A stretch of 64,000 nt of DNA from an uncultured Nitrososphaerales archaeon (GCA_963709405.1 CAVPXM010000026.1:1-64000); one strand, 5' to 3'. Shown: positions 14,712-58,165, counted from the stretch's first letter. A program made the numbers and translations. The notes: a model not told the origin generated them from the letters alone.

Positions 14712-14850
14712 GGGCGCGCGCAAATGAATGCGCACATGACACGTTCCTAATGATGTTCTCCACATCGTTATTAGAAGACCCTATTTCCGATATTATTATG
14801 GTAGATTTTACAAGAATCCGATATTGTCCAATGGTTTAAACTTACTGGTT
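14712..14850 (+). repeat. Repeat family A, internally deleted copy
   Basis: gggcgcgcgc head, then catcgttattagaagaccctatttccgata..tccgatattgtcc. Confidence 0.65.
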
Positions 14851-15286
14851 GTAAACACGGTTCTACTCTAACCAACGAATAATAATTTTGATAATGACGC
14901 GAGTCGGCCGTCAGACCACGATCCAGGAAATTCTAATTCACTGCTAAGTCAACTGCTAGGCGAAGAATCTACAAACTATCGCTTTAGAATGAAACCTGAG
15001 GATTTAACTATCTCAGATACCGTGCTGTTTCTTGACCTCAGTCTGATTCTAGCATTTGCTTGCTTTGCCAAGCGCTGCTGCAGGAAAATTACTGGTACAG
15101 ATGTTCATTTTTGTTTTGGCAGTTGTTTTGAACACTGGGATCATACGTAGTTACACCGATTTATCGAATTTAGTAAGAGCAGTAATCAAAATTCAGAGAT
15201 GATCTGCCATTAATTGAAGCATCACTCTTACGGCTTAAGATGTCATCGTGTTATGTGATAGGTCTTATCTATCGTACTACATATTT

Positions 15287-15480
15287 AGCGCGGGCCTCAT
15301 GATAGAGATGCATATACATATAATGCTCTACCATCGATGTTCGTATATAACGAACAGTCCGTCTACACAGATGATGTCTCATCTTAGAGACTGTTATAAT
15401 CTGGCGTACCGCACATCTGTATCAGAGAACATTTTTCCGATATAACTATAGAGGGTTATTCAAATCTGAATTTGCCTAAC
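15287..15480 (+). repeat. Repeat family A copy
   Basis: gcgcgggcctcatgataga..gtctacacagatgatgtctcatcttagagactgttataatctg..tttttccgata. Confidence 0.85.
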
Positions 15481-15587
15481 ACGGATTGGCTAAAGAAATG
15501 TATTGCCAATCTCACTTTGTAATATGTCCGACATATGTTAGAACGAAGAATAATGTATTTCTCAATTCAAAAGCCTCAATTTATTGA

Positions 15588-15857
15588 TCAAAATTTAGGC
15601 TTCAGAGTGCAGTCTGGGGGTATAGGTCCTTTATCAGGACAGGCAGGAGGAGTCGGACCATTATCGCGCATCAATGCCTTTTGATTATCGCTTGCATGAC
15701 CAATAGCTGTTAGTCCAGTAGCATTTTTTGGTTTAGTACTGACACAACAACCATCGCAATATTTAGGACATGGATTCGATTTAAGTGCAAATGTAGAGCA
15801 TGAATAAAATGGCATGATAAGCGAAACAGCAATCACAGATAGCGTGATATATCTCAC
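15588..15857 (-). CDS. Small secreted Cys/Pro-rich protein
   Basis: Signal-peptide-like N-terminus, CPKYCDGCC and PPACPDKGPIPPDC. Confidence 0.7.
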   Translation of the reverse strand: MRYITLSVIAVSLIMPFYSCSTFALKSNPCPKYCDGCCVSTKPKNATGLTAIGHASDNQKALMRDNGPTPPACPDKGPIPPDCTLKPKF

Positions 15858-15949
15858 TCTTTATTAGTATAGTATTCAAAGCGGGGTTGGGGCGATTACC
15901 AACTCTTGTAGTAAGTTAGTTTAGCCAACTATCTTATACACAAACAATT

Positions 15950-16330
15950 TCATGACTCAAAACCTTGAACACTTACTGTGTCAATATCCATCCAGATATT
16001 AGTTCCAGTGTAAATGAAGCTCTAAGCCAAGTGATCCTACCTAGAATATTCTTCATCCCGCATGCATGATAACTATAAAGTTTGTATAGTTCCAATAAAC
16101 TGGGTTAGGTCCACTAATGTTAGAATCGTCTTTAACATAAGTAACTATACCATTAGTCGCAGCAAGTTACTGGAGTATTTTCTGGAACAAGGAAATCTAT
16201 TGCATTTCGGAGTTTCCCTATATGAGCTGGGGAAGAGGTCTTATCTATTCTTTCTAACAAATTCTCCGGTACCGGTAATCTATAACGGTTAACAGCCCTC
16301 CTTTCCAAGCCACGTCCTCAAGCTGTAGAC
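15950..16330 (-). pseudogene. M23-family metallopeptidase remnant
   Basis: Manual translation YRLPVPE..SPAHIGKLRNAIDFLVPENTPV/LAATNGIVTYVKDDS..NFIVIMH, with frameshifts and stops. Confidence 0.7.
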
Positions 16331-16971
16331 ATTCAGGCTTGATAAAATCCTATCTATCATCTGCTATATTTTGGAACTCGTTATTTTTCTTTCTTTAACC
16401 TTACAATAGATCGTAATTTATTTCGTGTGCTGTCTGAGCAAGATTCTTACCTGGTTAATGTGTTATTGTACAGTACCAGCAAGCAAAAGGATACATTCAC
16501 GTCATAAGTCTAAGGCTTATCTTTTTAAAGGCCTCATCTAGACAAAACCGTGAGAGGGAGTTTTTACCAGTCATGGTACTAGAGGTCTTGTCGCTACTAC
16601 TAGTACACGGCTGAGATTTTGTCCCTATGTTTGATTCCATTTGCTTGCTGGAAATTGTTGCGTTACGTATTAACAACTAGTTAGCAATTTATCACTTATA
16701 TAGAGTAGAAAAATATTGCGCTATAAATATTACAGAAAAATCTTCCTCTGGACTTGAGAATTTGATATTGTCCGACATGTTGAAAATTACAATCTTGAAT
16801 CACAGGAATCGCATTATGTAATCTAGTATGTTATTAATCCTCGAATTATTATTAATCTAGTCGTTATGATACGATTGATAGTTCACAAATTATCTCTAGA
16901 CAAAAGACTCAAACTATTCGCCTATGTCAATAGGAAGTTCCTTATTTGAACCGTTAATTCTTAATTCTTTA

Positions 16972-17270: not shown

Positions 17271-17343
17271 ACAAAAAAGATATTGGGAATTGCTGGTGCC
17301 GTTACCATCAAACCGTCCGCACCACAGACCGCCATGTGTATCT

Positions 17344-19273: not shown

Positions 19274-20260
19274 TTGGAACTGAGCGTAAATGAACTATTG
19301 TTAACAGAGTCTCTACGTAGGAAGATCTGTAAATGTGACAGACCCAAAGCGTTTCTAGATACCATAGGAAAGAACAGCATAAGGACTAGAAGCAATTATG
19401 GAATCGCGCTAGTCCACTTACAGAGATTCCTTTACAATCGATTTAATGGAGAACATAATGTAGATTCTATTATCGATTTAATATCAAGTAATCAGATAAA
19501 TGTTTATGAGTTACTCGATAATTTTGTTTCCTTTGAAAGTATAAAGAAAAATCAGGAAAAAAATAAACCTCAGAGCATAAAAACTCACCTAGTAGGAATA
19601 AAATCATACTTTGCATATTACGATATAGATATCATACCATCTAAATTTAAAAGGAAAGTAAAGATGCCAAAAACCCTTAAGGAGAAGGAGGAGCCAATAA
19701 ATGCCGCAGATATTAGAAAAATCCTATTGTCGTGCAATAACCGCAGGCTTAAAACATATCTCTTGATTCTGGCCTCCGGAGGACTACGCGCAGTCGAAGG
19801 ATGTGCAATAAGAATAAAGGATATCAATTTTAAGGTCAACCCCACTATGATACGTATTCGCGCGGACTATACTAAAACAAGAGTTGCACGAGATATTTTC
19901 ATTTCAGATGAAACAACTCGATATCTTAAGCAATGGCTAGATTGGAAATATCGTGAGAGAGGCTTAAATCCCGATGATCTGATATTCAATACATTTAACG
20001 TAGAATCAAAGCCCGAGACTCTGTACGTAAAGTAGAAACAGAATTTACTAAAGTACTAAAGGTTGCTGGTTTAGACGACAGGAAAGAAGGAATGAGACGA
20101 AGGAAGATCACACTACATTCGCTAAGACGCTTTGTTAAAACAGTGATTTCTGATGAAGTTGGAGGAGACTATAGTGAATGGTTCTTGGGTCATAATGGCA
20201 GCGTCTATTATACTAAAAAAGAGTCTGAAAGAAGAGAGATATATCTCACTTCCTCTCTTC
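19274..20260 (+). CDS. Tyrosine recombinase/integrase, frameshift near 20030, C-terminus apparently truncated
   Basis: ASGGLRAVE (R), YTKTR (K), TLHSLRR (HxxR), FLGHNGSVYY (H/Y). Confidence 0.9.
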
Positions 20261-20377
20261 CTTTCTTCATTCCTCTAAAATGTATTTGTTGTGATATCTA
20301 GATATTGAGCATGATTTGATATATCTGATTATTCTGAAATTTGAGAAGCATAGATGCTGCAGTAGCTGGAGATGCCT

Positions 20378-20435
20378 ATAATAGAATTCAAAACTATCTC
20401 GGGTATCTAGGGTGTAAAACGCAAGGTCCAATTAT
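20378..20435. repeat. Repeat family B, right-arm copy
   Basis: tataatagaattcaaaactatctcgggtatctagggtg matches 57803-57840. Confidence 0.75.
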
Positions 20436-20439
20436 AGTC

Positions 20440-20635
20440 AATCGACTCCGCCAATTGATGGTATCTATAGATAGTAGCATATTAGTGGATGTAAACCAAA
20501 ATATTTAGGTCTATTAATATCTAGCAAGTTTTTAACATATCGGACAATATCTGATTCTAAGTCCGGTTTAGTTATCTCGGAAATGGTGTCTTCTAATAAC
20601 GATATGCAGCATATCAGATTATAAATATTTTCAGT
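20440..20635 (-). repeat. Repeat family A copy (3' part)
   Basis: ctatagatagtagcatattagt..ggtgtcttctaataacgatatgcagcatatcagattataaa, with the palindrome at 20601-20615. Confidence 0.85.
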
Positions 20636-23627: not shown

Positions 23628-23774
23628 ACATAAATTATATAATGACTTTGAGCCAACACCTAATTTGTATATCTCAGTCAGGGCGCACACGCACTTAAGT
23701 TTCCAGTTACGGTGATCAATTATACATAGAATGCAAAGCATATCTCAGGCATTCCCATAATTGTACCTAAATCA

Positions 23775-23960
23775 GACTATATCGAATATAACATCAGATC
23801 CAGAATGAAGTCGAAAAAAGTGTCTTATAATACGATATGCAGCGTATCACGATTATAAACATTCTTAGAAACTGAGGTATCATCTGTGTAGACTGACGGC
23901 CCTGTGATTAACAGATAATGATGATAAAAATTTATGCGTATGTCTAACATAAGGCGCGCC
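23775..23960 (-). repeat. Repeat family A copy
   Basis: aaaagtgtcttataatacgatatgcagcgtatc..attataaacattct..atctgtgtagactgac..ggcgcgcc. Confidence 0.85.
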
Positions 23961-24189
23961 AAATTATGCCAGTTATACTGCAAATGGTTAACACATCATA
24001 GATGATAAATATATAACATACAGGACATTTTCGAAATGGTAGCATAATTTGGTAAAAAGAGTACGAATAATTAGTCTTGGGGACATTTTTCGTTTACAAG
24101 ACATTTTTGGTTTACATACATTAGCAATTGAGGCTATAATTCACACCCATCAGCCTTCCAAAGGCAATGCAAAGGAAGAGAGATGGTAA

Positions 24190-29298: not shown

Positions 29299-29475
29299 GG
29301 TAGATTCCAATCTTTTGAACGTTGCGGTCACAGTTTTGGAGTTAAGAAAAGTCGTCTCGTTTCGTATTCTAATTGCACTCTATTATTATATACAGTAATT
29401 ATAACTTCAATTCTTCCTTACATTAGAAAATAACCCGGGTATCCCGGGTGTTAGATGATACTAGATCCAATTCTA
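29299..29475. repeat. Repeat family C copy 2 followed by a family B left arm
   Basis: C at 29299-29358. aattcttccttacattagaaaataacccgggtatcccgggtg at about 29409-29450. Confidence 0.8.
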
Positions 29476-29861
29476 TGGATAAGATCTCCCCATTATACCC
29501 TATCCAACTTCAAATCACTAGGGACAATTGGGATGTAGAGAAGCGCGCCTGCTCGTGTTCCTATCTATCAACTGAATTGATAGACCAATCTCAGCTCGAT
29601 AACCTACTTCTTTTATGATAATCCGACAATGCCATGTGTAACGCTCCCAAACCGTAATTAAACCGAGCCCATGTAAAACAAAATCCTTTTGCTCCTTGCA
29701 AACTACTTCCTGAAATAAAGAAGGCAGATTTGGATTTGATAGAGCATCATATCCAATACAAAGGTCCTGCTGCGCATAAATCAGAATTATTAAAATGCCC
29801 CGAATGGGTTATTCTATAAATAGGTAACACTCCCGGACTTAATTACTCATGAACAAAATTG

Positions 29862-30185
29862 TTGACTCTACAAATTGATACCTATAGATAGTAGCATATT
29901 AGTCGATGGGAATCTGAATTGAAAGATCTGTGAATGCGAATGGCCGTACAGATTATACTACCAGTAGTTTAACTTTCAGCTATACGTCTAGAATGTAAAG
30001 TACATCTCAGGCTGGTAACTAATTCCAATAATAGTTATCCAAATCGAAATCAGATCCAAAATAATTATATCGGAAATAACGTTATGAATACGATATGCGG
30101 CATGCCAGATTATAAATATTATGTCAAATGGGACATTAGATGTATAGACTGACAATTCGATATACATGTACATTGAATAGATAAA
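29862..30185 (-). repeat. Repeat family A copy
   Basis: ctatagatagtagcatattagtcgat..tacgatatgcggcatgccagattataaatatt..tgtatagactgac. Confidence 0.85.
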
Positions 30186-30189
30186 ACTT

Positions 30190-31030
30190 TCATTTGTATG
30201 TCAGTCATTGGCAAGCGCTTATGCCGTCACTCCGCTTCCATGTGCCGCAGCTTGCGCGCCATTTAAGAGCTCCCCGGCTACGTATGCCACTTGCTGTAAG
30301 CAACATGCTGCAAATGCGCCCAAGCCCAAGGCACCCATCAAGCCAGCGAGCGTCGCGTCCAGTGACGCAACCGGGAGCCAAGCCCGCAGTCCTAAAGTCT
30401 AGATTCCCCAAGCCCCCTTCAGTGACCGAATTACATCAAGGCCAGGTGAAATTCGTTGATGACAATACTAATACACAGTTGGTCCCCTTTCAATACAGAA
30501 GCTTAAGAAGGCATTAGACGGAGGTAGTGCACTACCCCCAATGACCCAAACGCCAAGCGGAGGAGGCAGTTGTGGCATTGTCAAATACGAGGGACATAAT
30601 TATGGGTGCCGCGCACGAAGACCAGGTTGACCAGAATGACGATAGTTTCGAGTATGGTGGCACATTTCTTATACCAAACAAAGACGATCAATTGACTATT
30701 GAATTTGGTGGGCTGCCACATAAACAGGGCTTGGACAGAAGTGGATACAAGGTTGCGTTTAACGAAGGTAAATCAGGAGTCTTTATGTGGAAACAGGAGG
30801 ACACAACTTATGTACCGATAAAAACAGCAATAGGAGGTAATACTAATTATCAAGCTAAGGCAGGCTCGAAAGTCAACGTAGTAATCCGTAAACAGGATAT
30901 AGGGCCGTCTTCTGCCCCAACTGGTGTAGAGAATCAATGCCTATGCCGACGGGCAAGCTAGTTGGACGTTGGAGGGACATGAATTCACGGCCACTTGGCT
31001 CAAAGCCGCCATATACCGGACACCTTAAAG
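30190..31030 (+). pseudogene. GC-richer foreign gene remnant with a Cys/Ala/Pro-rich N-part
   Basis: Fragmented ORFs 30208-30402 and 30572-30961, with composition visibly different from the flanks. Confidence 0.4.
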
Positions 31031-34347: not shown

Positions 34348-35842
34348 TTTAATTCCAAGCTCGTTATCTTCTCTTAGTACTGTATTTTATATTTTGAGGC
34401 AGCGATAACTATATCAAAACCCATTATTCGCTTCCACTTACTATAAACCGAAGAATGCTAATTGGTTGATTGACTTGTGATCGGACTTCCCTCTTATCTC
34501 ACAGATATTTAGATAATCCTTCAATTATATATGTATATGACAATATACATGAATGAAAAAACCGTTTGCATGTATTTTTTATAGTTAGAATATATAATTC
34601 AACTTACTTATTGGTCAATTATTGGTACTTAGACGAAATTGTGATCCGCTTTGAATAGCGGATGGTTAGCGTTAGAGACAGCTGTATACCCAAACATTTT
34701 GTGATCGGGTACGGAGCTTAAGCCTGGGATAAAACCAGATCGCCTATGTTAACGGTATAAATGAACTTGTAACCTTAGGTTCACGACTTTCTAGATGTTG
34801 CGTTTAGATGAGTAGAACGACTATGTAGAAGCCATATTACACAGTCAAAGCTTTGTAAGAGTATAACACCAATAGTCTATTAAAATAATCGAGGTACGCT
34901 AGATTTGTGGATACTATGTTCCGCCTTTTGAAGCATGCAAGGATTCCCCTGTTTTCTAACAGGAAAAGCAATCACATGTTTACAATATGGCAACACGTAG
35001 TTCTAGTTGGAATCATACAGTATGAAGGTAAGAGTTATAGAATGTTTGTTTGTGGATTGGCTGTTCGAGGCGTAATACCTTAGGTTGTTTCTACGGCTGT
35101 CACGAATTTCACACTTGACAACGTTACAGGAATTTACAGAAAGAATTAACGATGCATTTGCTTGAAAAGATAATTTCGTCATTCATTGTAATTAGCGGTA
35201 CCAAGCATATCTTTGTAGAGATAGATTCGAGAGGATTGATATACACGTTTATCACAGTATCATTATACTGATCGAACAGGTTGAGAAGAGAAGAAAATAT
35301 CCGATATTATCAATTGGAGCTGAGATATTAAAAAAGACCGTATGTTCGATTAAAATAAGACTCGGCTCCTACAAAACATGACAACATAGATTTCAAGCCA
35401 ATCCTAACAAGAATATCTGAAATTGGTCCATTATCCGTAGTTACAGGTGACAAGGTATATGATGGTGAAGAAGATAATCATGACTTGAAATAGAGAAAGA
35501 TTACATGGTTTCAGTGATATTCCAGCTCGATATGATGATGACATACCGATATGGATAACATGTGGAAGATACTGAGGAAAACAAATTAGAAGATATTCTA
35601 AGGTGCTATACAATCAAAGGAACAAGAGGGATGAAACCATAGTTTCCGTATTAAAAGGCCGGTTGGAGAGCACTTGATGTCTAGATCAACTAGAACGCAA
35701 AACAGGGAATTGTCTTCCAGATGCATAACCTACAACATGCACAGACTGGCTAATCTCATAAAATTGATGTTTTCTATAAAACCTTCAATTAATTTACAAG
35801 ACTTTCCTGTTTTTTAAACCTGGGACACTTAAGGGATATATC

Positions 35843-38504
35843 ATGGTATTGACCGCTCCAAAGTTATTGTCCAATTACAGATGTCCGAATTGTGGCTCTT
35901 TAACCTCAGTTGTTGCTAGTAGGATCTATAGCGGAGGGCTGATTTTTGTTTGTGGCAGATGCAGTATTTGTGGTGTTGTTAGATCGATAGACAATCAAGA
36001 TGAAGCATATTTAGAATTCTTGGATATGTACGATAATGGACAAACCTCTAAACTACAGGATTTGGAATCATTAAGAGATCAAGAAAAATTTTTACGACCA
36101 ACATCTGAAATAGACTCTTTACTATATTGCAATCACGCAAAGGAAAACGAATTGCTCAAGACAATACTCTACTCTAAGAAAGATTATATTGTTGACTTTC
36201 GAGTATTTCAAGAATCTACACCCGAAACAGGAGGTGAACTTGAGCTTCTCCCCCTTGATGAAGGAATACTTGAAGCTCTATCTGCAAAGAATATCAAGAA
36301 GCTTTACAAATTTCAAGAGGAGTCAATTAAACAAGTCTTAAGAGGAAAGGATGTTGTGATTGTTGCTCCAACTGCTTCAGGTAAGACAGAGGCCTTCTGT
36401 ATCCCTATAATACAAAAAATCTCTGAGGAAATCCCACACTTTTCTTCGTTAAGGTCCAAAAATATTAGAGGAAACGAAAAGGTGTTTGCAGTTTTTGTAT
36501 ATCCGACTAAGGCATTGGCACGAGACCAGTTACCAAAAATAAGACAAATAGGCAGCAAATCTGGGAATAAATGTGAACATATTTGATGGAGACACTACGA
36601 TGGTCGACAGAGATTCAATAATCACCACCTCAGTTCCAGAAATCATTATTACAAATTTCGATGTAATACATTACCATTTACTTAACAGGACACGATTTTC
36701 ACGTATAATTAAAACCGCGAGGTTTTTAGTTGTTGATGAGGCTCATGTCTATACTGGTGTATTTGGAGCAAATATCCATCATGTCATAAAAAGATTTCAA
36801 AGACTAACTAACTCATCAAGACACAGGGGAAAACTCCAAATAATTGCTGCTTCTGCCACTTTGTCAAATGCCAAAGAATTCTGCAAGCAATTATTCGATA
36901 GAGAAATGGACTTGATATACGGTACAGGCAGGAAGGGTAGAATAAACTTCGTTATCATGTTTCCATCATTACACTCACAAAGATCGTTGATACTTGATTT
37001 GCTAAAGCAGACTACTACGAGAAAACATAAAACTATCGCCTTTAGTAAATCTCATTTGTCTTCAGAACTCTTGGCCTTTTATTCATCAAAACAAGGTATA
37101 TCAATAAAAGTACATAGAGCGGGTTTACTAGCAACTGTGAGAAAGTCTGTGGAAGAATCATTTAAGAATGGTAAATTGATGGCGATCTCTGCGACCCCAA
37201 CGTTAGAGCTTGGTATAGATATTGGAGACGTTGATGTTGTCATCTCAGACATTGTACCTGTCAACAGACTGATTCAAAGGTTGGGAAGGGCCGCAAGAAG
37301 TGGTCAGGAGGGATATGCATTTCTTGCTTTAGGTAACGATCCAATAAGCCAATATTACAAGCTACATCCTGATGATTATTTACAAGATCAAGAATTTGCA
37401 TATACTGATCCGAGTAACCCATTTGTAGAAGAATATCAAGTTCTAGCGATGGCATGTGATAAGCCTATATCCATATCCGAATCACCTTCAATAATTACCA
37501 TACTCGATCGGCTTATTTCAAAGGATCTAGTCAGATTATCAAATAGCGTGTTCGTACCTAATTTTAAAAAAGCTATGGAAGTCCTGAGAGAATTCAATAT
37601 AAGAGGAATAGGGACCAGGGTAGGCATATTTTATAATGGAAAATTAATTGGTGAACGCCAGATGCCTCAAGCAATCGAAGAACTTCACGATAATGCAGTA
37701 TATTTCTTGGCTGGAAGAAGGTATCATGTCCAAAAACTACATTTTAGGAATGGTAAGCAAAACAGTCGGATGCAAGAACAACAGGAACAACTACAACAAC
37801 AGTCTGTGCCCTACGCTGAGCTGAAATCTATTCCCAATGACTACCCATACTATACAAGAGCAATAGTTAATGAATTTCCTACTATTTTGGAAATTCATGA
37901 TCAAAAAATGAGTTACGGTCTAGAAGTCAAGTATTGTTCTTTAAGAATTCAAAAGAAAGTGATCGGCTATTCGAACGTAGAAGTTGGTAAAGAAGCATTA
38001 CAAGGGACCAAAATAATGCTTGAAAATCCCATAGAATTTGAATTTATATCGAAAGGATTGGTTTTTAAGGCGCCTATTCCAGAATCCGTTGCAAAATCTG
38101 CACAAGATGAACAATATGTAGAAATGAGTGGTTATCATGCCTCAGAACACGTCATAATCGAAGGAAGCTCAATGATAACAGGAGGAGCGTCTCAGGATTT
38201 GGGTGGAATATCACTTGGCTCTACAGGTTCAATATTTATCTACGATGGGAGTGTAGGTGGAAATGGTGCCAGTAGGGTTTTATATGACAAATTTGATAAA
38301 GCGATTGCAAGAGCATTAACGATATTATCTGATTGTCCGTGTATGAGTGAAAGTGGTTGTCCCAGATGTACTTACTCTTACAGATGCGGAAACAATAATG
38401 AATACTTGCACAAGGCGTCGGCTACAGAGATATTGAATAGAATTGTAAATGGCGAACAAACGCGAATAGGAGACACTACAATTATAGATAAGCCCTTGGT
38501 CTGA
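35843..38504 (+). CDS. DEAD/DEAH SF2 helicase with a C-terminal DUF1998 Zn domain (Hrq1/MrfA-like), frameshift near 36560
   Basis: N-terminal CxxC pairs, APTASGKT, DEAH, SAT, TLELGIDIG, QRLGRAAR, CPC..GCPRC..C. Confidence 0.92.
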
Positions 38505-40274: not shown

Positions 40275-40621
40275 CAGGTTTGTAAAGACTACTATATCTG
40301 ATCTTGGTTATGCTGATTACTCTGAATATTTTATAGGATATTCTGGCCCTACATACTGGCCTAAAAAAGGACTCTGAGAAAGCCGAAATATTCCGCTAAA
40401 TTGAACGTTATTTAACTTTCCTAAATGTCCATCAATTAGAAAGGCAGGGCGCTGACATACAAACCAAGGTAGAGGAATTGGAAGAATTAAATCAGTCGCT
40501 AAGACAGCGTGATAAAGTGAAAGATGATGCCGTAGCACAATTATCTGATCAGCTTGTCTCTTTATCACCAAGGTTACAAGAGATTGAGAGAAAACTCATG
40601 ATTGAAGTCAACACGCGGTAG
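40275..40621 (+). pseudogene. Tyrosine recombinase C-terminal remnant
   Basis: RFVKTTISDLGYADYSEYFIG..TYW..YLTFL..QLERQGADIQTKVEELEE. It resembles RFVKTVISD..DYSEWFLG at 20128-20190. Confidence 0.8.
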
Positions 40622-41287: not shown

Positions 41288-41545
41288 ATTCTTAGCATTT
41301 AAATACTCATCAGCAGTTTGCAGCTATTCCTTACCGCTAATCTTGAGCAGATGCTCCTCCATTATCATCAAAGTCAGAGCCATGACTAGTGCGAATATAC
41401 TCTTGCTCACAGCCGTTAATACATTTTCAGGTTATTTAGGTTAGCGTTTGAGATTAGGCCGTATAACTGTCACTAGAAGTGGGAATATCAACTGGACTTA
41501 TTTTTAACTAGCGTAGCAATTTTCTTATCTATAAGACGCTTTATT

Positions 41546-41680
41546 TGACACGCCTCGTGGTAGACACGCACATAAACTTTTGTCATCGTATTGAGGTGTC
41601 AGTCTATACATTTGATGTCTCATTTTAGAGAATGTTTATACTCTGGCATGCTGCATATCGTCTTAGAACAATTTTTTCTG
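41546..41680 (+). repeat. Repeat family A copy
   Basis: gtcagtctatacatttgatgtctcattttagagaatgtttatactctggcatgctgcatatcgt. Confidence 0.85.
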
Positions 41681-41834
41681 ATCAGAAGCTTGCAGTTGCG
41701 ACAGGCAGGCTCAAGTGGTACAGAGCATGGTCATAATACTACTAAAACCAGTGAGTATTATCCCCTAACTCTCCAATCATATTATTACCACCAACGATAA
41801 TTAAAGGGAGAAGGGCCTCTTCGGTGTACAAAAA

Positions 41835-41905
41835 ATGACACCTGATAAAGTTGCAATCATAACTGGTGGCAGTTCTGGTATTGGAAGGGCAACTGCAGTA
41901 TCAAA
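41835..41905 (+). pseudogene. N-terminal stub of a short-chain dehydrogenase (SDR)
   Basis: MTPDKVAIITGGSSGIGRATAV carries TGxxxGIG and stops where a repeat A copy begins. Confidence 0.75.
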
Positions 41906-41907
41906 CC

Positions 41908-42095
41908 GACAGTCTATACATCTGAAACATTACTTTAGAAAAACGTTTTTAATCTGATATGCTGCATCTCGTATTATAGAACACTCTTTCCGAAATATAA
42001 TATCAGACTTTTCAAGATCTGATATAGTCCGATGTGTTAAAACTTAGTGGATATTAGCAGAATAAAATACATTGATTCATATTGACTAATTATTA
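41908..42095 (+). repeat. Repeat family A copy, headless
   Basis: cagtctatacatctg..taatctgatatgctgcatctcgtatta..tttccga..tccgatgtgttaaaac. Confidence 0.85.
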
Positions 42096-42231
42096 TTGTC
42101 CAATTTGTAGTTAATCCACATTTATACTGTACTATGGCCAAATTGATTGTAGAAATGATTTTCTGGAATAAATTAACTACTCGAGCAAAATAACACGGTA
42201 AGTGATATGATAAACCCAACCTCTTCTATTC

Positions 42232-44517: not shown

Positions 44518-44620
44518 AATTGGATAGGGATTTACACCCGGGATACCCGGTTAATTTCAACTCTAGAGAAGAATTTAGTGATGTATATAGAAGATTATAA
44601 GACAAAAGTAAATTATAATA
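44518..44620. repeat. Repeat family B, left-arm copy
   Basis: cacccgggatacccggttaatttcaactctagagaagaattt, nearly identical to 57732-57768. Confidence 0.85.
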
Positions 44621-45867: not shown

Positions 45868-46265
45868 ATCGTATAGGATGGACTGCGGCGTAACTGCTTC
45901 ATTAAATGGAGAAATGAATGAGCTCATTTCTTATTCTCTTTTTATATTATCTAAGGTATTTGGCGCGGGCGGTCATGACTTATATACAAATAAAGCGTTA
46001 TCTGATCAGTCTCGTTATATATCAAATCTTTGGTCTATAGATCTCACGCTTCATTTCCAAGAATGCTTATAATCTGGCATGCCGCATATCATATTATTAT
46101 AACGCTATTTCCGGGATATTATGGCGGATGTGTTAAAAAATCCGATGTTGTCAGATGTGTTAAACGTACTGCATGTTAACGTAATTAGTATGTTGATTCG
46201 CATCGACCAATTGCTACTATCTATAGATATCATCAATTGGGAGTCGACAGATATTAAGTTCATCA
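45868..46265 (+). repeat. Repeat family A full copy with a 5' extension shared with 54404-54700
   Basis: ggatggactgcggc..catttcttattctctttttata..ggcgcg..tataatctggcatgccgcatatc..ttgctactatctatagatatc. Confidence 0.9.
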
Positions 46266-46498
46266 CGAGTCTTGATAGATAGCCTTGTTGAGCTCAGACT
46301 GGTTTGTATAGCTAATTGGTTGATAATGGAAAAGATGAACAGGCACACGAAAGAAATGATCACGATTATCAATGATTTAAATCTGAAATGGCAAAGGTTG
46401 AGCATTTTAATAAAAATATGGCATACACAAGAGTGCCTCTCCCTCTATAAGTGGTGTATTAGTAGTTATTTAATTGCCTAATTATTATTATCTAATAA

Positions 46499-46699: not shown

Positions 46700-46721
46700 T
46701 CACGCATAGGTGCCACACAAA

Positions 46722-46905
46722 GCGCGCGCCTCATGATAGAAAATACACATTTTATCATCTTAACCAAACGTGAGTCTATACATATGATCTCTCAATCCAG
46801 AAAACCTTTTTAAAGTGATATGTTTCATAATGTAAATAGAAGACGCTATTTCCGATATGGTTATACCTAACTTTACAAGAATCTCATGTCGTCTAAAATG
46901 TTAGT
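46722..46905 (+). repeat. Repeat family A, diverged copy
   Basis: gcgcgcgcctcatgataga..gagtctatacatatg..tagaagacgctatttccgata. Confidence 0.75.
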
Positions 46906-47228
46906 CCGTTAACTATTCTAAAAGGATCCGTCTTAGTGGCAGTCGTGGCGGATCATCTGGTGACGACAATTGAGGATTCTATTTCCAAGCGGCTGAGATA
47001 ACAATCACTTACCATCGGCAAGAGAGATTCAGTAACTAGTAGCAGAAATGATTAAGGAGATCTGGGATAGGATCAGCAATACGCTGCGAAAATGACTAAT
47101 GAGAAACGATAGGTACTATAGTGTCGCTTTGCCAATGTTAGCAAAAGCGACAAGATAGAGACCAGTGATGAAGTCGCAAATCCTATCATATTATCATTGA
47201 AACCAACCTATTCCATGATTTTTCTTAC

Positions 47229-47453: not shown

Positions 47454-47674
47454 AGGAAACCTGACGCATTATACCATTTAATATTTGGGATTTATTTATT
47501 TCAGTGTCTGTTATAGAAGAATCTCACCTTCATTTTCATGTCTAGGTATTCCAATGTGTTAGTCTATACTTCTGAGGTCTCATAGTCGAAAAGGTTTTTA
47601 GCGCGGTATTTTTCACACCGTTAATAGAATATCCGATATAATTTGATTGATTTTCGACTACGAGAGCTTATGAT

Positions 47675-48009
47675 TAGTCAACACATTGTACAAGTACGTA
47701 TTTTCTATCTTTAGTTTTTTCCAGACTTATTGGTAGAAAATCACCACTCATTGCAGAATTAATATTATATTTGATCATGTAGTTCGGAGTAAAGTCCGGT
47801 TACCTAAGATTACGACATCTATCGAGCCAATCCCTAATAATATTGGATGCTTCATCAGCAGAACATTTTCTGACGTTAATAAGGTAAGGAGTTACGATAC
47901 GCCTTACAACAAATTTCTTATAATCAACTAAGGGAGTTTGCAATTGCTTCTCGATCCACCAGATCGTTGTTGAACCTGCAGTCCGAGAGCGCGCCGGTCT
48001 AGTGGACAC
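47675..48009 (-). pseudogene. PriX (primase non-catalytic subunit)-like domain remnant
   Basis: WIEKQLQTPLVDYKKFVVRRIVTPYLINVRK..IIRDWLDRC. Confidence 0.7.
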
Positions 48010-48476
48010 CTAATTATATTATTCTCATAACCTGTGGATAATAAGTTATTTCATCGATAGAAAAAAGTTTTCATGTAGAGAACAACTTATGTATCACATG
48101 AGACTAAATTAATTCCAATGCCCATTGCATATGTAAAAAATTCTAATATACAATATGAGCAATTTTATGGAGAAGAGAAGAATAAAGCGGGAAATAACGA
48201 AAATCTTAGATCAAAGCATGTTTTATTCATACATGGCATGGGGTCATCATCTGCTGCTTGGTGAGATATTCCTGAGGCGTTAACTAAAATAGTTACCTCT
48301 AAAAATGAGCACTTTCATACGATAAATTTATATTTAATTGGTTTTGGTAAAAGTGACAAGCCACTTACAGGTGGATATATAGCTGCAGAAGTTGCTATAA
48401 GGAATAAAGAACGAATAGAAAATCTTGTCTTGATAGATTCCTCAGGAACGCTGAGGCAACCAACACCTCTGTTAAG

Positions 48477-49652
48477 AGTTATGTAAACATGTAGATGCTT
48501 TCTCCATGTAAACTGTTTATACTAGTTTTGCCTCTATGTTTTTTATTATAATCACATGCCCAATCAGATACTGCTTTACCTATATCACGTTCATTTTGAA
48601 AGGTGGAATTGTTTATTGCTTGTCGTTGCATCCATAGCCATCTTACCTCTATCAGATTGAGCTCGGGTGATCTGGTGGGAAGAAATACAAGGTGTATCCT
48701 TGGATGATATTTGGATAATACTGCTTTCACCTTGTTTGATTTATGTATCGATACGTTATCAAGTATCAGAAATATCTGCTTGATACTATCGTCATACTTT
48801 TGGTCCATTCTTTTGATAAAATCTAAAAACTGTTTTCCGGTTTTCTTTTTGTAGCCATGCGTCCACATTTGATCATTGGTATAATCGTATATACCAAACA
48901 CGTTTAGAATTCCCTTTGTCTTTTGAGCTTTGGATACCTTAGACTGTGTAGAGGACCAAGATGTACCGCCATATGTTTTTGCTACTATCGGTCCTTTCTC
49001 ATCCTCGTAGAGCAGGACCGAGTCAGAAGACAGGTTACTGTATCTTAGTTCTTCAATTCTCTTTTTTTCAAATGATATTCAGGATCTAGGCTGTATCCCA
49101 GAGTAATCTTTGACTGCCTATATTTTATTCCGTGTTTTAGGAGGATATTTCTAACCTCGGTGTGGCTGATAGCATCTACAAGGCTCATCTCCTTGGAGAC
49201 AAATCCTGCTAGTACTCTTAATGACCATGTGGAAAATGGTAATCCATAATCTTTTCTTGAATTTTTGGTTGCTATCTCCACAATCTTATTCTCCATATCG
49301 TCAGATATTTTGAGTGGTTTATGCTTGTGTATTTTTGATGCTATTCCATCTATACCTTTTTCATTGAAACGATGAATCCATTTTCTTATGTTGCTATCAT
49401 GATGGTTAGTTGCCTTCCTTATTTCAGGAACTGTGTATCCATCATCCTTAAGAAGAATAATCTTTGCACGGTATCCAGATTCTCTATCCTCAAGTATGCT
49501 ATCATGTAACCTATTCTTTTCATTATTTGTAAGCAATCTGAGGAATGTATCCCTCATGCTGATAATTTAAAAGAGAGTAAGCTAAAGGTGTTATGGTATC
49601 TGAACGAGCACTGTTAGTTTACAGAAGAGCATTACATATTCTTTACATAACT
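48477..49652 (-). mobile_element. IS630-family insertion sequence, complete
   Basis: TIRs agttatgtaaa / tttacataact. Flanking direct repeat gttaag at 48471-48476 and 49653-49658. Confidence 0.9.
48479..49557 (-). CDS. tnp: IS630 transposase in two frames joined at an A7G slippery run near 49065
   Basis: HTH ORF ([18 protein letters not shown]), then [24 protein letters not shown]. Confidence 0.9.
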
Positions 49653-50600
49653 GTTAAGCCAGTATCTCAATGTAGCAATGGACCCAGAGCCTAATAGAGA
49701 CAAGGTGAAAGAGGTATTCAAGCAGATGTATGCAAATCCTCTATTATTGTCTGATATAGTGGTTGATGTCTTTATGACAACAATCAGGGAAGAAGGTGCT
49801 AAAAATGCTTTCAAAACTGCCTTTAATGACAGCACTACCCGACCGATCGGCTTCAAAAGGCTTGAGAAGCTTAAGCATATCCCTTGTTTATTGATTTGGG
49901 GAGATCAAGATAATGTAATACCTGAAAAAAATTCCAAAGATTTTAAGGACGCTCTGATTAATGCTAAGTATGAGATAGTCGAAAACGCTGGCCATGCCCC
50001 ATTTGTAGAAAAGACCTCTATAGTATATGAAAAACTACGTTCATTTCTAACTTGATAGATTTCAACCATAAGTTTGTCGCAGGTGGTCTTCTGATCTAGC
50101 TTTCCAGCATTGGTTAAAGCAAACTAAGCTTGAGCAATCAATTTAAGTGACGTTGCATTTTGTCAGAAAGCTCCTCCATTAGGGACCCAATTAGCATATC
50201 TCTCCGGACAATAATTTCTGTCGATTAATAGACATCATGCCATAAATGCTCACGTATATCTCAAACTACAAAATACTTGATCCTGCTACGAATTTGGTTC
50301 ATCATTACTAAAAAAGCGACTAAGGGATTGGGCGCGGTTCTCGACATCCAATTGTCTTGTAATTGTATCGCTAGTGATTTGAAGTTGGATAAGGATATAA
50401 TTGGGGGGCGTTATCCATAGAATTGGATATAGTATCATCAGAGGGCGAGTCTGAGATTAACCAGAAAATCAGGTTTGGTTAAGGCTCAAGCGATGATTAA
50501 CAGATGTTCAGGAAGAATAGTCATATTACTATCATCATCTTTTGGAACTTTTACGTTACCTTTTACATAGTGTTTATTGTCATGGGTTCTGGTGCCACGT

Positions 50601-52207: not shown

Positions 52208-52370
52208 AAGTTGAATCGATGGTTTGAGGGGGCGCGATCCAAGGATTAGAATAGAATGACATATACAAGTTTACGTGTTGGTTTAGGCAGTGGCTATTGC
52301 TAAGGGCTTCATTTAGGAGTTGCAAAGTCATCAAACCTCAAAATAATTCTTGTCCTATAAACGCATTATT

Positions 52371-52560
52371 TGGCGCGCGCCCTAAGGCTGAGTTGCAAAT
52401 GAAGTGTTCTCATTAGGTCTATTTCTCATCAAGGTCTATATATCAAATCAATTGAGTCTATACAGATAATGTCTCATATCTAAAAATGTTTATAATCTGA
52501 TATGACGCATATCGTATTAGAAGACACTTTTTCTGATGGATTTATACTGGATTGATGAAG
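52371..52560 (+). repeat. Repeat family A copy
   Basis: ggcgcgcgcc..gagtctatacagataatgtctcat..tttataatctgatatgacgcatatcgtattagaagacac. Confidence 0.9.
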
Positions 52561-52675
52561 CATTCTATATGGTTCTGTTTGACTAGAATCAAGGGAAGCT
52601 TTCTAGTAATCTGATTCTATCTAATTTTCATTTTTATCTCCCTTAAACACGGGATAACCCTCCGTTCACCTAAGT

Positions 52676-53160: not shown

Positions 53161-53194
53161 ATAGCAGGAACAAAGGCGACAGAGTGAGAGACGT

Positions 53195-53323: not shown

Positions 53324-53393
53324 CAAGAAATAATACTGATCCTGAAGAACTTCGCAAGTTGGAAGGAGTGATATGAATGTGGACAAAGACATT

Positions 53394-53568
53394 GGGCGCT
53401 GATATCCAAACCAAAGTGGAAGAATTAGAGGAATTAAATCAATCACTAAGGCAGCGTGATAAAGTAAAGGATGATGCAATAGCACAATTATCAAATCAAC
53501 TTGTATCTTTATCAGCTAGATTACAAGAGCTTGAGAGAAAACAAAGCGTAAGCATACCAAGCCAGTAA
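53394..53568 (+). pseudogene. Tyrosine recombinase C-terminal coiled-coil tail remnant
   Basis: GADIQTKVEELEELNQSLRQRDKVKDDA is the same peptide encoded at about 40447-40530. Confidence 0.75.
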
Positions 53569-53915: not shown

Positions 53916-54335
53916 ATGAATTATATTATATTCGCAGCTATGGCAGCGATCTTGGTCTTTACCACACTGACATCCAACACTTTCGCACACGTATCAGATC
54001 AACAACGCTATAATGATGGATATAATGCTGGCCAAAACTACGCGGCCTGCGATTATAACAATTGCTATCATAGTGATCATGGTTACGATACAGGCTGCCC
54101 AAATGATAAAGTACATACTAACGAATATTGTGATGGATACTCACTTGGTTATACTAGTAAATGGAATTCATTAGCAGGTGGAACATCGACACAGCAATCT
54201 CAATGCCAAGCGCAGGGTGGATCTAATGTACGTGTAGATGGCAGTCATAATAACATAATCATAACTCCTAGACAGACCCAAAAGCAGTCATCAAATAGTG
54301 AATCGAATTCTGAAAATGCTGACTACGGTAAGTGA
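53916..54335 (+). CDS. Secreted Cys/Tyr/Gly-rich protein
   Basis: Signal peptide, YNDGYNAG..C..HTNEYCDGY motif. Confidence 0.7.
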   Translation: MNYIIFAAMAAILVFTTLTSNTFAHVSDQQRYNDGYNAGQNYAACDYNNCYHSDHGYDTGCPNDKVHTNEYCDGYSLGYTSKWNSLAGGTSTQQSQCQAQGGSNVRVDGSHNNIIITPRQTQKQSSNSESNSENADYGK

Positions 54336-54403: not shown

Positions 54404-54700
54404 ATCGTGTAGGATGGACTGCGGCACAACTGCTTCATTATATGGAGAAATGAATAGGCTCATTTCTTATTCTCTTTTTATAGTATCTGCGGCATCTGGC
54501 GCGCCCCTGACTAACATATGGATAAAGTATTATCTGTCTAATGCTATGTATATCGAACCAAGTCAGTCTATACAGATAGTGTCTCATTTTAGAGAATGTT
54601 TATAATCTGATATGCCGCATATCGTAATAGAAGACACTTTTTCCGATAGAATTATTCTGGATCTGATGGAATATCCGATATTGCCCGATATATCTTAAAA
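54404..54700 (+). repeat. Repeat family A copy with a 5' extension
   Basis: Contains gatatgccgcatatc at 54609-54623 and aligns with 45868-46160. Confidence 0.9.
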
Positions 54701-54701
54701 T

Positions 54702-55001
54702 CTACCTATTCGCTAACTCTGCTAATGTATCGCCATGACACGGCAGAGGTGCACACCAACAACCTAGGACTTTGCCTTTTAACTCTGGAAGCTGGTTCAT
54801 TAATTCGTTGTTTTCTGGGGATAGTAACCATGTCCTATGCTTGGCTATAACTTGTTCTCTAGTACCGTCTTTACCGACTACGAAGGGATTACCCCATCTT
54901 CCATCGCTGCCGCAAATATCTCGACGTATAGCCAGCGAAGGCCGGCCAATATACACATCATAAGGCCATTTCTTGCAATGGACTACGAACTTGCTGGTCA
55001 T
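54702..55001 (-). CDS. DUF4326-family protein
   Basis: VYIGRPS..WGNPF..LKGKVLGCWCAPLPCHGD. Confidence 0.88.
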   Translation of the reverse strand: MTSKFVVHCKKWPYDVYIGRPSLAIRRDICGSDGRWGNPFVVGKDGTREQVIAKHRTWLLSPENNELMNQLPELKGKVLGCWCAPLPCHGDTLAELANR

Positions 55002-55413: not shown

Positions 55414-55998
55414 TTGTCTTCTGAGTTTGTAATTAAGAAAGGGCCGAAACAATGGGAGGCCAAAATATTCTCAGGAAAAGAGGAAATCGCTGAAATAAAG
55501 AAAGGAGAAGGCCTTAGTTTTAAACTCGTAAGACCCAAGGACAAGATCGAATGGGTGCTTGCTAATTTGGTGCATGGTGAGCACCGTCCTTTCTCTTTCT
55601 CAGTGCGCAAGGCTGGAAAAAAAAGCACCAGCCCGTATACTGACAGCAACGACTTGGGAGATGAAATATTTGTTGTCCGTGACCAGTTGTTCAAGCATAA
55701 TGGCAAATTTTACATGCTCGCAAGTCATCCAGAGGATAAGTCTTGGAATGAATATGTTAATAGTTCAATCAGGTACATCTGTAGGCTAGATGACTTTCCT
55801 TACTCAGAGCTTTCAGAAGTCGACTACCATCATTACACTTTACGGGACAAGATAAAGAGATTTCGCGGTAAAGCCGTTGGTGAAGCTTCAGGTTTGGGAA
55901 TAGAAGAGCGAGGTCACCGTGTAAGGCTAGATAGCGAATTAGAGGACGTAGGGTTATTCATCGCTGCAATTTCATATTTGCTTTATGCCTCGGGCTGA
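55414..55998 (+). CDS. Hypothetical protein
   Basis: 194-aa ORF directly upstream of the oxidoreductase. Confidence 0.65.
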   Translation: MSSEFVIKKGPKQWEAKIFSGKEEIAEIKKGEGLSFKLVRPKDKIEWVLANLVHGEHRPFSFSVRKAGKKSTSPYTDSNDLGDEIFVVRDQLFKHNGKFYMLASHPEDKSWNEYVNSSIRYICRLDDFPYSELSEVDYHHYTLRDKIKRFRGKAVGEASGLGIEERGHRVRLDSELEDVGLFIAAISYLLYASG

Positions 55999-56075
55999 TA
56001 AATAGAAGTAGTTTCACGAGATATTTTTCGGCATGATGTAACTTTAATAAATCAGGCGGTCCACATTCATTTTAA

Positions 56076-57565
56076 ATGGTTGACCCAAACCGCGTTGGTG
56101 GATTTCCTTTTCGTAAAGCAGACGCAGAACAACGGAAGATCGATTTTTCAGAGGTTCAACAACCCTACTCTGAGGAAGAGGTTATGCAAGAAGCCGAGCG
56201 TTGTCTTTTATGTGGAACTCCTGTTTGTATAGATGCTTGCCCAGTTCTTTTGGATGTTCGAGGTATGAACGAGGCTGCGGCCAGAGGAGACTTCAAAACA
56301 TCCTATGAGCGGATCAGAGAAACAAACCCCTTGCTGGGTGTGACTGCCAGATGCTGTCCTCAGCTGCAAGGATTATGTGAAGATGCTTGCGTTTTGAAGT
56401 GGTCAGGACAGCCAATCGGGATCGGTCTCATTCAAAGATATATTGCAGACTGGGAAAGAAAAAATCGACAACCACCTGTATCCATCGAACAAGATACGGG
56501 AAAAAAGGTGGCAGTTGTCGGCGCTGGGCCCGCTGGCCTTGCAGGTTCTGCTCTTCTCAGAAGATATGGTCATCAGGTAACAATATACGAAGCATCTATT
56601 ATGCCAGGCGGGACCGCATGGTATGGGGTTCCAGATTATCATCTGCCTAAAGAAGTTTTAATTGATGAAATCGAAAAAATTAAAGCGATGGGGGTCAACA
56701 TAAGAACCAACACTACTGTAGGAAAAGATGTAACACTCTCTCAACTTCTAGAGGAAAATGATGCAGTCCTAATTACTACAGGCTCGAAAGACACTGCGAA
56801 CCTAGAGATCCCCGGAGTTAATCTTAAAGGAGTTCTGAGCGGATACCAGTTTCTTGAAAGTGTTTTCTTGGAAGGACTGGAAAGTTACTTGAGTAATCCA
56901 AAGTATAGTCTGGGTAACGATATTATTGTAATAGGCGGTGGAGACACATCTCTTGATTGCGCGAGGACTGCGTTAAGGCTTACAAAAGGGAAAGGCAACG
57001 TTACCGTATTATGCTTGCAGCCTGAAACCGGATTACATGTTGACCCAATAATGCTTGAAGAAGCAAAGGAAGAGGGAGTGAAGTTCAGGTTCCTTGGGCA
57101 GGCAAAGTCTTTTGAAGGTGACAGTAACGGACATGTCGTAGCGACAATAATTGACAGTGTACACATGAGTGCTCCTGATCAGTCAGGAAAGAGGCATCCA
57201 GAGGTTATACCAAATAAAGAATTCAAGATGCCAAGTTCTACAGGTACTTATAGCTATTGGTAGAGGTCCAAATTCCTTTCTCCAAAAGAAGGCCGGAATC
57301 AAGACTCGGCAAGCGTAATTCGATTGCAATTGCTGATGACTACAGAACATCTATGAATGGGGTCTTTGCTGCAGGAGACGTAACTAGTGGCGAAACTCTA
57401 ATTGTAAAGGCAATGGAAAAGGGACGTGAGGGCGCTCAAAGAGTTCACGAATATCTAATGGATTTGGAAGCCGACCACATGTCGTTTTACGAAAAATATT
57501 ACACAAAAATCTCATATGATAGGATGTTGGAAGGCAAAAATGATGTTAGCTCACCTCCTGATTAA
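56076..57565 (+). CDS. GltD/SudA-like FAD/NAD(P) iron-sulfur oxidoreductase, frameshift near 57240
   Basis: RCLLC..CIDACP, GAGPAG, GGGDT..D, VFAAGD motifs. Confidence 0.9.
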
Positions 57566-57731
57566 AGAATCAAAGTGTATTTCTGTTCTTCTTGCAGTAC
57601 ACGGTCCACTAGGCATAGGCGTCACAAGTGAATCAGTTGTCCTAACGGACTTGGTGTAATAAGCAATGTTAGAACACCTAATAAGATGCTAAATACAATA
57701 TTGCATTTCCTATGATTAAGGGTCATGCTAT

Positions 57732-57840
57732 GGATACCCGGGTTATTTTCAACTCTAGAGAAGAATTTGAGGAATATGTAGGACGATATATTAACCGAAA
57801 GTTATAATAGAATCCAAAACTATCCCGGGTATCCCGGATG
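57732..57840. repeat. Repeat family B complete unit with inverted ends
   Basis: ggatacccgggttattttc ... aaaactatcccgggtatcc. Confidence 0.85.
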
Positions 57841-57879
57841 CAATATTAGGACGATATCTGTATAATCAACTGCTGCTAG

Positions 57880-58165
57880 CCCTGACTTACTAATGAAGTG
57901 TTATCTTTACATCGCACCAAGTCAGTCTATACAGATAATTCTTGATTTCAGAGAACGTTTATAATCTGGCATGCTGCACATCTGCATTAAAAAAACAATT
58001 TTTCCCGAGTTAACTGTATGAATTTTCCACAAAATCTGAAATAATCCGACGTGTTAAAACATGCTGGATATTAACAGAATTGATTAGGCGGTTCATATCG
58101 ACTAATTGCTACTATCTATAGATATCATTAATTTGCAGAGTCGACAGATTTTGTTTATGAGTTCA
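57880..58165 (+). repeat. Repeat family A full copy
   Basis: ccaagtcagtctatacagata..tttataatctggcatgctgcacatc..ttgctactatctatagatatc..gagtcgacag. Confidence 0.9.

Follow-up and report, generated by a model that had tools for sequence, protein, structure and literature searches.

The first 64,000 nucleotides of contig C26 (CAVPXM010000026.1) from the genome of an uncultured Nitrososphaerales archaeon, an ammonia oxidiser of soil, in the following referred to as the window, contain copies of a dispersed element, repeat A, which is the subject of this study. Repeat A constitutes a family of non-coding DNA cassettes of 0.2–0.35 kb that populate the host genome (G000; 4.83 Mb in 100 contigs, 91% complete) and the genomes of its relatives, and it is characterized by a modular anatomy, a restricted range, an old age, a pronounced constraint on individual sites, the lack of a signal for RNA structure and the linkage to two repeated genes. 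We tentatively favour the view that repeat A derives from small selfish elements of the replicon type, in which it served as cis-acting region for control or as origin, and that it was scattered and shuffled by recombination, a possibility that we take seriously without regarding it as probable, and we infer promoter activity, an origin or control function and a route of spreading from the properties of the sequences.

The initial annotation of the window had listed 12 copies of repeat A and three faint traces. A profile that was seeded with 11 copies from the window and iterated over the whole genome recovered all 12 of the former and each of the latter, with the traces at 16744 and 60625 being weak (Table 1). 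The iterations converged from 88 via 92 to 95 matches, which are distributed over 38 contigs and both strands and 14 of which reside in contig C26. Applied to the window alone, the profile returned 14 matches at E ≤ 3.4e-10. The same places are grouped by a repeat finder and are found in motif searches, where a core 18-mer (GAGAATGTTTATAATCTG) with at most three mismatches was matched eight times in the window compared to 0.10 expected occurrences and a tail 16-mer eight times compared to 1.14 expected. The family is real and larger than initially stated. A filter that removes copies which are at least 85% alike retains 77 of the 95 copies in the host genome, and the removed ones include larger segmental or assembly duplicates with identities of 95–99%.

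The aligned copies display the module order that had been proposed initially, which can be refined by the consensus of the profile. In its left part, the left end ATTCTTATCTATAG is followed by about 12 variable bases, TTTGGCGCGCC, TCATGATAGACA...TTATCATCA and TGTCTATGTATATCGA, and a GGCGCGCC box and repeated GTCTAT words are also found ahead of the core. The core proceeds from CAGTCTATAC via a variable stretch to TCTCATTTTAGAAAATGTTTATAATCTG, the sequence (G/A)(C/T)ATGCnGCAYATC, GTATTAGAAGACAC, a run of five thymines (T5) and CCGATAT, with the core palindrome being only half kept in the form of its conserved right half GCAYATC. The following spacer contains one or two further TCCGATAT words (two to three per cassette overall), and the tail of the long form, CATCGACTAATTGCTACTATCTATAGATATCATCAATTG..GAGTCGACAGAT, includes the perfect 12-bp palindrome TATCTATAGATA. 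The left end is sharp, as 59 of the 95 matches start at profile positions 1–30 and the DNA further left is unrelated between copies. Right ends cluster at positions of about 211–230 (21 matches) and 311–333 (24 matches). The combination of a fixed left end with clustered right ends thus defines a modular family without a single length. Some copies extend by about 440–520 bases past the tail, an example of which is found in the window from 58173 to about 58690.

The copies of repeat A are old. Their median pairwise identity amounts to 0.658 within genomes (2146 pairs) and to 0.643 between genomes (2963 pairs), and only 13 of the within-genome pairs exceed 0.85, with no sign of a recent burst. 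The variance of the conservation per site is 9.8 times the binomial value (chi-square 2196, 209 degrees of freedom), and the conservation in copies of the host genome is correlated with that in copies of six other genomes (r = 0.79, 206 sites). The top-kept 7-mer, TATCTAT, which is part of the tail palindrome, is exact in 25 of 34 cases. The best-kept word of the core, TTTATAA, is exact in 52 and contains at most one mismatch in 85 of 92 copies (52 of 57 from the host and 33 of 35 from foreign genomes), compared to a median of 16% exact occurrences over all 7-mers. Since the same sites were kept in independent genomes, a protein-bound function at the level of the DNA is favoured, and the constraint looks like selection on short protein-binding words, with the binding itself being predicted. 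The initial annotation had offered three readings, a non-autonomous mobile element, a protein-binding or recombination site and a structured RNA. This genome-independent conservation favours a protein-bound function, and the structured RNA fails the test that had been proposed for it, for reasons described below.

It could be argued that the copies are dead relics of an ancient burst or of a larger decayed element, whose apparent constraint would originate from subfamilies and from a bias of the profile toward copies that have retained the strongest words. Such an origin would be in line with a divergence within genomes that is similar to the one between them, with the many fragments that end at arbitrary break points, with surroundings that are poor in genes and rich in repeats, and with one copy that was split by an insertion sequence. 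Still, we consider it unlikely, as the conservation of sites varies tenfold beyond neutral decay and in the same manner in independent genomes, and as neutral words of 7–12 bases should rarely stay intact at identities of 0.64–0.66, which is at odds with the persistence of TTTATAA in both own and foreign copies.

The proposal that repeat A does not contain a conserved reading frame has held up. Mismatches show no periodicity of three bases (0.23, 0.23 and 0.26 by codon position), the best frame of each copy contains a median of 3–4 stop codons and only one of 51 long copies per strand is free of stops. The cassettes are also located outside intact genes, as was equally noted before, with none of 71 sites of the TATA-like word lying inside an open reading frame (ORF) of at least 100 aa. 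Only 2% of the cassette bases are part of open frames of at least 120 codons, compared to 57% genome-wide, and the flanks are poor in genes, with a fraction of 0.41 of their bases in long open frames compared to 0.57 genome-wide. In contrast to its non-coding nature, the proposed folding of repeat A as structured RNA did not withstand scrutiny. Over the window, Rfam returned no match that reached the gathering score, and a search of two copies including their flanks at E ≤ 1 yielded no more than two rows at chance level (E = 0.3 and 0.91). RNAalifold did not assign any pair in 23–58 copies of the host genome, covering four sub-ranges and both strands, or in 36 copies from six genomes. The stems suggested in the initial annotation were paired in 60.0% (CAGAT/ATCTG), 61.6% (TCTC/GAGA) and 72.2% (GATATGC/GCATATC) of cells, which taken together (65.4%) is barely above the 63.5% found in shuffles, and single-strand folds of three stretches were no better than shuffles (z = -0.71, -0.58 and -0.77). 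Because there is no Rfam match, no consensus fold and no convincing covariation, the RNA reading is unsupported, and repeat A is non-coding DNA that is most likely not an RNA gene. A gene for a small non-coding RNA, which would start from a promoter in the head or core and end at the T5 run, is for these reasons highly improbable, even if the TATA-like word is combined with a T-run in an intergenic cassette and even if contigs of an RNA library overlap with cassettes, including head-to-core pieces of other copies (with loose ends at 52458). In this comparison of four public runs over 19 kb, both RNA libraries consist of contigs that carry no information on start or strand; the contigs of the second library (X18) cover only coding genes in this region, which does not prove that the cassettes are silent. 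The DNA runs contain up to 0.86 of the sampled words; their contigs break at the repeats, with the listed joints resembling further copies of the family rather than excisions.

The TTTATAA of the core has GAAAAT(G) ahead of it, an arrangement that fits an archaeal TATA box with a putative A-rich B recognition element (BRE). Among 1097 long ORFs of the host genome, TATA-like hexamers peak at 25–45 bases upstream of the start. The BRE-like side would confer a rightward direction to the putative core promoter. With its TATA-like word as the most constrained part of the core, the cassette might be used by the host as a 'mobile promoter' or as landing pad of transcription factors, which would provide adjoining accessory genes with a TATA/BRE promoter and with operator-like words. 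In places, cassettes are indeed found 130–400 bases upstream of unrelated co-directional genes, which include short-chain dehydrogenases at six places, belonging to three differing groups, and several genes of unknown function, and at one locus on contig C61 a gene has a cassette in place of its native upstream region. A precedent is provided by homologous promoters that precede unrelated genes in bacteria, as described in the available text of PMC3575422. However, among 71 cassettes with the TATA-like word, an ORF of at least 100 aa that starts within 400 bases is co-directional in only 9 cases, convergent in 10 and divergent in 19. The strand of the nearest ORF shows no bias in six settings (p = 0.34–1.0; for example 31 vs 23, p = 0.34), and the gene on contig C61 is truncated rather than rewired. 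The cassette is not generally the promoter of the adjoining gene, and its use by the host in this capacity appears very unlikely.

Repeat A is specific to a lineage. A survey of the taxonomic family identified it in 9 of 238 genomes, comprising all seven of the genus, the single genome of a second genus (g15) and one of five of a third (g13), compared to none of the 225 genomes of 15 other genera. BLAST with one copy as query detected it in each of the six remaining genomes from the genus and in a single genome from a different one, compared to none of 33 further relatives. A strict pattern of three words matched only two other records among 185,579 GTDB species genomes, both titled as metagenome-assembled genomes of uncultured Nitrososphaeraceae, and it was absent from the viral contigs of IMG/VR. 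The consensus of the copies from other genomes equals that of the host.

A feature that was absent from the initial annotation, as were the conserved ends and the many surrounding repeat families, concerns the association of repeat A with a PriX-type gene and with a gene encoding a protein of 109 aa, termed gene X. An all-against-all comparison of the ORFs flanking the cassettes revealed several gene families, among which these two stand out. With 1.5 kb as limit for linkage, 15 of 29 loci of the PriX-type gene and 13 of 23 loci of gene X are close to a cassette, compared to at most 6.1% of the genome that is located that near. All of these 28 linked loci are on the strand opposite to the cassette and 21 of them converge on its right side. 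Twelve of the 15 linked PriX-type loci are convergent with the cassette located downstream at 15–373 bases from the stop codon, and in this form the cassette ends at about profile position 221. The PriX-type gene is repeated and mostly broken, with intact relatives of 353 and 383 aa on contig C38, which match the Pfam family PriX with 42.5 and 42.7 bits, and its protein does not contain a helicase domain. Neither gene X nor a gene encoding 131 aa nor other neighbours belong to a family in Pfam or PHROGs. The extension found past the tail of the copy at 57883 is a relic of gene X, whose mismatch rates are codon-like (0.26, 0.28 and 0.53) at about 58330–58450, within a stretch of about 58270–58450 where the mismatches follow such a pattern. 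Contig C30 carries tail, X, head and core in this order, which illustrates that cassette and gene X can follow each other head to tail. Overall, cassettes outnumber the linked genes.

Traces of recombination are found at the junctions of the modules. The GGCGCGCC box occurs 40 times in the host genome, about six times the seven expected occurrences, and several repeat families have it at the junctions between their modules; GGCGCGC is found 226 times compared to 76 expected, in 55 cases within 150 bases of a cassette. The box is present in the head of the cassette, in the linker within the PriX-type gene and at the 5' end of gene X, and it is exactly there that a piece of the PriX-type gene is fused to a head at about 14712 in the window and at C83:20856. 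At 41899, a cassette that begins inside the core is joined directly to the initial 23 codons of a short-chain dehydrogenase gene (about 41836–41905), the remainder of which is not found downstream of this cassette. Similarly, a core fragment at C61:27271 borders on a gene that is truncated at its 5' end. At the orthologous loci of four sister genomes the upstream part is intact and the surrounding 2.5 kb are free of cassettes. These two examined junctions are ragged truncations on both sides and not clean insertions. Comparisons with orthologous regions at four further loci, namely L054, L056, L057 and the stretches of the window itself at 50.6–54.4 kb and 56.9–59.3 kb, revealed only mosaics of other repeats and no clean synteny. 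At C21:284222-285501 and at C79:8319-9561, a copy of repeat A is interrupted by an insertion sequence (about 1.06 kb) that encodes a DDE_Tnp_4 transposase and is 96% alike at both places.

These properties could be reconciled in a mechanism where the cassette functions as DNA and provides a set of sites for the binding of proteins. The original elements would have combined a cassette with either a PriX-type primase gene or gene X on the facing strand. Since the linked gene is always located on the opposite strand, the cassette promoter would fire toward its 3' end, reminiscent of a counter-transcript in small plasmids. The cassettes would then have outlived and outnumbered the genes, to be now mostly gene-less and old, and they would have spread and been shuffled through gene-poor islands by recombination and illegitimate joins, often at GGCGCGCC. 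Carried further, repeat A might be part of an undescribed minimal selfish replicon of soil Nitrososphaeraceae, with units of about 0.8–1.4 kb that consist only of a cassette and a PriX-type gene or gene X, where gene-less cassettes are copied in trans as the primase-dependent counterpart of MITEs (miniature transposable elements with inverted repeats) and have helped to inflate the genomes. We regard this extended version as distinctly unlikely.

Several observations weigh against an origin or control region. A distance of at most 1.5 kb to a member of the five tested families of repeated genes applies to only 31 of the 95 copies, no intact element with defined ends that combines a cassette with an intact PriX-type gene was found, and the two intact PriX-type genes on contig C38 are more than 6 kb away from the only cassette found on that contig. 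The N-terminus of the PriX-type protein bears a weak likeness to primase-polymerases, which with 15.6 bits is below the cut-off, and the catalytic motifs are putative. The wider PriX family, with 1265 database matches, is annotated as primase X or as non-catalytic (cellular) primase subunit PriX; being widespread and cellular, its repeated copies could also be decayed duplicates of a host gene. With respect to the promoter, the T5 run about 10 bases past the predicted start would terminate a transcript early, and the contigs of the RNA library X16 cover 22 of 30 bins, as would be expected for DNA contamination. Finally, subfamily structure could inflate the heterogeneity of sites, to which the preference of the profile itself may add.

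The main rival to the cis-acting control region is a non-autonomous transposable element resembling a MITE or a 'solo end', whose TATCTATAGA ends would be bound by a transposase or recombinase encoded elsewhere and where the core promoter would be a passenger. The ends are the best-conserved parts of repeat A, and the left one is sharply delimited from unrelated DNA. The perfect 12-bp palindrome is found at 17 sites, compared to three for a control word, and 15 of these are located within cassette tails. About 95 copies are dispersed on both strands of 38 contigs in islands that are rich in insertion sequences, and the locus on contig C61 carries a cassette that is not present at the orthologous place in the four sister genomes. 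The hallmarks of transposition are nevertheless missing. As initially remarked, there are no extended inverted termini, although the left end and the tail have the palindromic 10-mer TATCTATAGA in common. The reversed left-end word is found six times in the window compared to 2.2 expected, which is not above chance, and no target-site duplication was seen at the inspected left ends. Three insertion-sequence families of the window have ends that differ from those of the cassette, and TnpB and Y1 transposases (PF07282, PF01797) have no match in this 91%-complete genome while control genomes were positive. There are no young copies, as the host-genome pairs with long flanks of 95–99% identity are larger duplicates, the right ends are variable and the two examined gene junctions are truncated on both sides. 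For the mobile element of the initial proposal, neither a partner transposase nor a target-site duplication nor a clean insertion has come to light, and we consider a MITE-like origin to be somewhat unlikely. Two related candidates were rejected. The adjacent integrase is not linked to cassettes, as among 26 tblastn matches to its fragment (at about 20 places) only the one in the window itself is found within 2.5 kb of a cassette, and head-only copies do not mark the ends of a longer autonomous element since they run into unrelated DNA. A scan of the window detected no tRNA genes and therefore no tRNA-linked integration.

Table 1. Copies of repeat A and associated features in the window, numbered from its first nucleotide.
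Feature	Position	Strand	Remarks
Piece of PriX-type gene ahead of the 14751 copy	~14680-14722		joined at GGCGCGC
Partial copy	14751-14862	+	profile 135-247, E 1.8e-20
Copy with head, core and spacer	15263-15485	+	profile 2-221, E 1.3e-43
Faint trace, spacer only	16744-16791	+	profile 180-231, E 3.3e-4; in an inverted-repeat pair
Integrase fragment	19274-20035	+	converges on the 20427-20634 copy
Headless copy	20427-20634	-	profile 117-326; perfect tail palindrome 20462-20473
Copy with head, core and spacer	23754-23977	-	profile 9-233, E 3e-47
Single copy detected as two matches with extra insert between them	29855-30218	-	29999-30218, profile 29-270; 29855-29917, tail 254-318
Copy with intact left end	41522-41800	+	profile 1-294
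Copy beginning inside the core	41899-42101	+	profile 80-284
Best full-length copy of the window	45940-46271	+	profile 4-333, 240.7 bits; tail palindrome 46218-46229
Diverged full-length copy	46711-47033	+	profile 16-323, E 3.6e-39
Core fragment (faint trace of the initial annotation)	47535-47644	+	profile 66-181, E 3.3e-17
3' part of broken PriX-type gene	47682-47995	-	converges on the 47535-47644 copy; homology ends at GGCGCGCC (47995)
Copy with left end, core and spacer	52348-52639	+	profile 2-284, E 5.7e-45
Copy nearest to the family consensus in the core	54476-54723	+	profile 4-247; TATA-like word 54598-54604
Copy without left end	57883-58172	+	profile 42-333; tail palindrome 58113-58124
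Relic of gene X as tail extension	58173-58690	-	converges on the tail; ends in GCGCGCC
Faint trace, head only	60625-60679	+	profile 8-58, E 2.7e-4

The window contains at least eight repeat families, and the cassettes are found in islands where insertion sequences abound. An element distinct from repeat A, with a length of about 125 nt and located at 57732–57856, is also found near 29405–29487, 44532–44620 and 20377–20417. It has true terminal inverted repeats (GGATACCCGGG...CCCGGGTATCC) and is present in 13 copies in the host and also in sister genomes; judged by these termini it looks like a classical MITE. A dispersed repeat of about 160 nt (53385–53545 and 40447–40595) has at least 19 copies here and tens per genome of the genus at 78–90% identity. 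Another repeat of about 250 nt, with many copies in all genomes of the genus, begins at C36:63171-63424 (3071–3324 in L057) where a cassette fragment ends. The insertion sequences of the window include one with a DDE_Tnp_1 transposase at 8323–9348 (about 29 copies, some of which are 96–100% alike), an unnamed unit of 965 nt at 34821–35785 (about 12 copies) and an IS630-like sequence at 48467–49658 (about 10 copies). On the plus strand at 53916–54335, a secreted-looking protein of 139 aa with a high content of Cys, Tyr, Asn and Gly is encoded, which is a member of a family with seven loci, three of which are directly upstream of a cassette head. Its gene is followed by a hairpin with a T-run, and it has no Pfam family and a PHROGs row (E 3.4e-4) that is probably due to chance. 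Several genes are split into two ORFs, namely an ammonium transporter (5924–7170), a DEAD-box/MrfA-type helicase (35843–38504), a protein resembling the small chain of glutamate synthase (56076–57565) and PhoD (58699–60436). As the contigs from other runs are each short of one base at 41830, 52188, 53838 and 57243, some of the apparently broken genes near cassettes may be assembly indels or reflect differences between strains.

Compact genomes are commonly ascribed to ammonia-oxidising archaea. The genomes of the genus investigated here comprise 3.4–5 Mb (with one 75%-complete assembly of 2.1 Mb) and contain gene-poor islands that are rich in repeat families. A cassette with about a hundred copies that has kept a TATA box for longer than the species exists would be informative for the growth of archaeal genomes, for the way in which promoters or origins travel in archaea and for the role of repeated PriX-type genes. 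It is also of relevance for annotation, where the cassettes, as neither genes nor known RNAs, would otherwise be left blank. If the cassette were only relic DNA, the finding would be of local interest.

In search of known systems that could serve as reference for repeat A, we have not found a literature description of such a repeat in Nitrososphaera. Small dispersed repeats of prokaryotes include Correia elements and REP/REPIN sequences, and some known families carry promoters; a MITE requires ends that are inverted, the duplication of its target and an element from which it derives. Repeat A resembles these families as a short, non-coding element with many intergenic copies on both strands, but it differs by the absence of classical terminal inverted repeats, of target-site duplications and of a matching transposase, and it is longer, modular, variable in its right ends and very old, with identities of about 0.65. 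A palindromic element derived from IS200/IS605 was rejected, as no Y1 or TnpB was found in the host genome and the DNA folds no better than shuffles. The same applies to integron attC sites or cassette arrays, in light of the absent strand bias of ORFs and the presence of copies on both strands, with no search for an integron integrase having been made. The bacterial promoters described in the available text of 'Promoter reuse in prokaryotes' (PMC3575422) share with repeat A the location of a promoter-bearing stretch beside unrelated genes, whereas most cassettes are not followed by a co-directional gene. Cryptic integrated elements are known from Thaumarchaeota, for which the accessible part of one study reports 74 cases across 20 genomes, with sizes of 2.6–98 kb, an integrase and attachment sites. 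Replication proteins of the primase-polymerase kind are encoded by some of them, and the majority is of unknown type (Krupovic et al., 2019; PMC6563490). The terms 'MITE' and 'non-autonomous' do not occur in the main text of that article. Repeat A shares the phylum and the primase-polymerase theme with these cryptic elements and differs from them in the absence of a link to an integrase.

The nearest working analogy is offered by the origin of the plasmid pRN1 from Sulfolobus islandicus. According to the available text of two reports, this origin encompasses 166–232 bp directly 3' of the primase gene orf904 and is defined by a stem-loop of 100 nt, and plasmids containing only the origin were transformable with orf56 and orf904 supplied in trans (PMC3869888, PMC4234260). 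Repeat A contains no stem-loop of about 100 nt and folds like its shuffles, a discrepancy that has to be added to the points counting against a role as origin. Moreover, pRN1 is a free plasmid whereas repeat A is found in about 95 chromosomal copies, and its neighbour is of the PriX type and devoid of a helicase domain. In turn, both systems place a non-coding region of about 0.2 kb directly 3' of a gene of the primase family, which in case of repeat A holds for a minority of cassettes, and an arrangement analogous to pRN1, with replication in trans, would allow for cassettes that do not carry a gene, as might be the case if repeat A is a putative origin.

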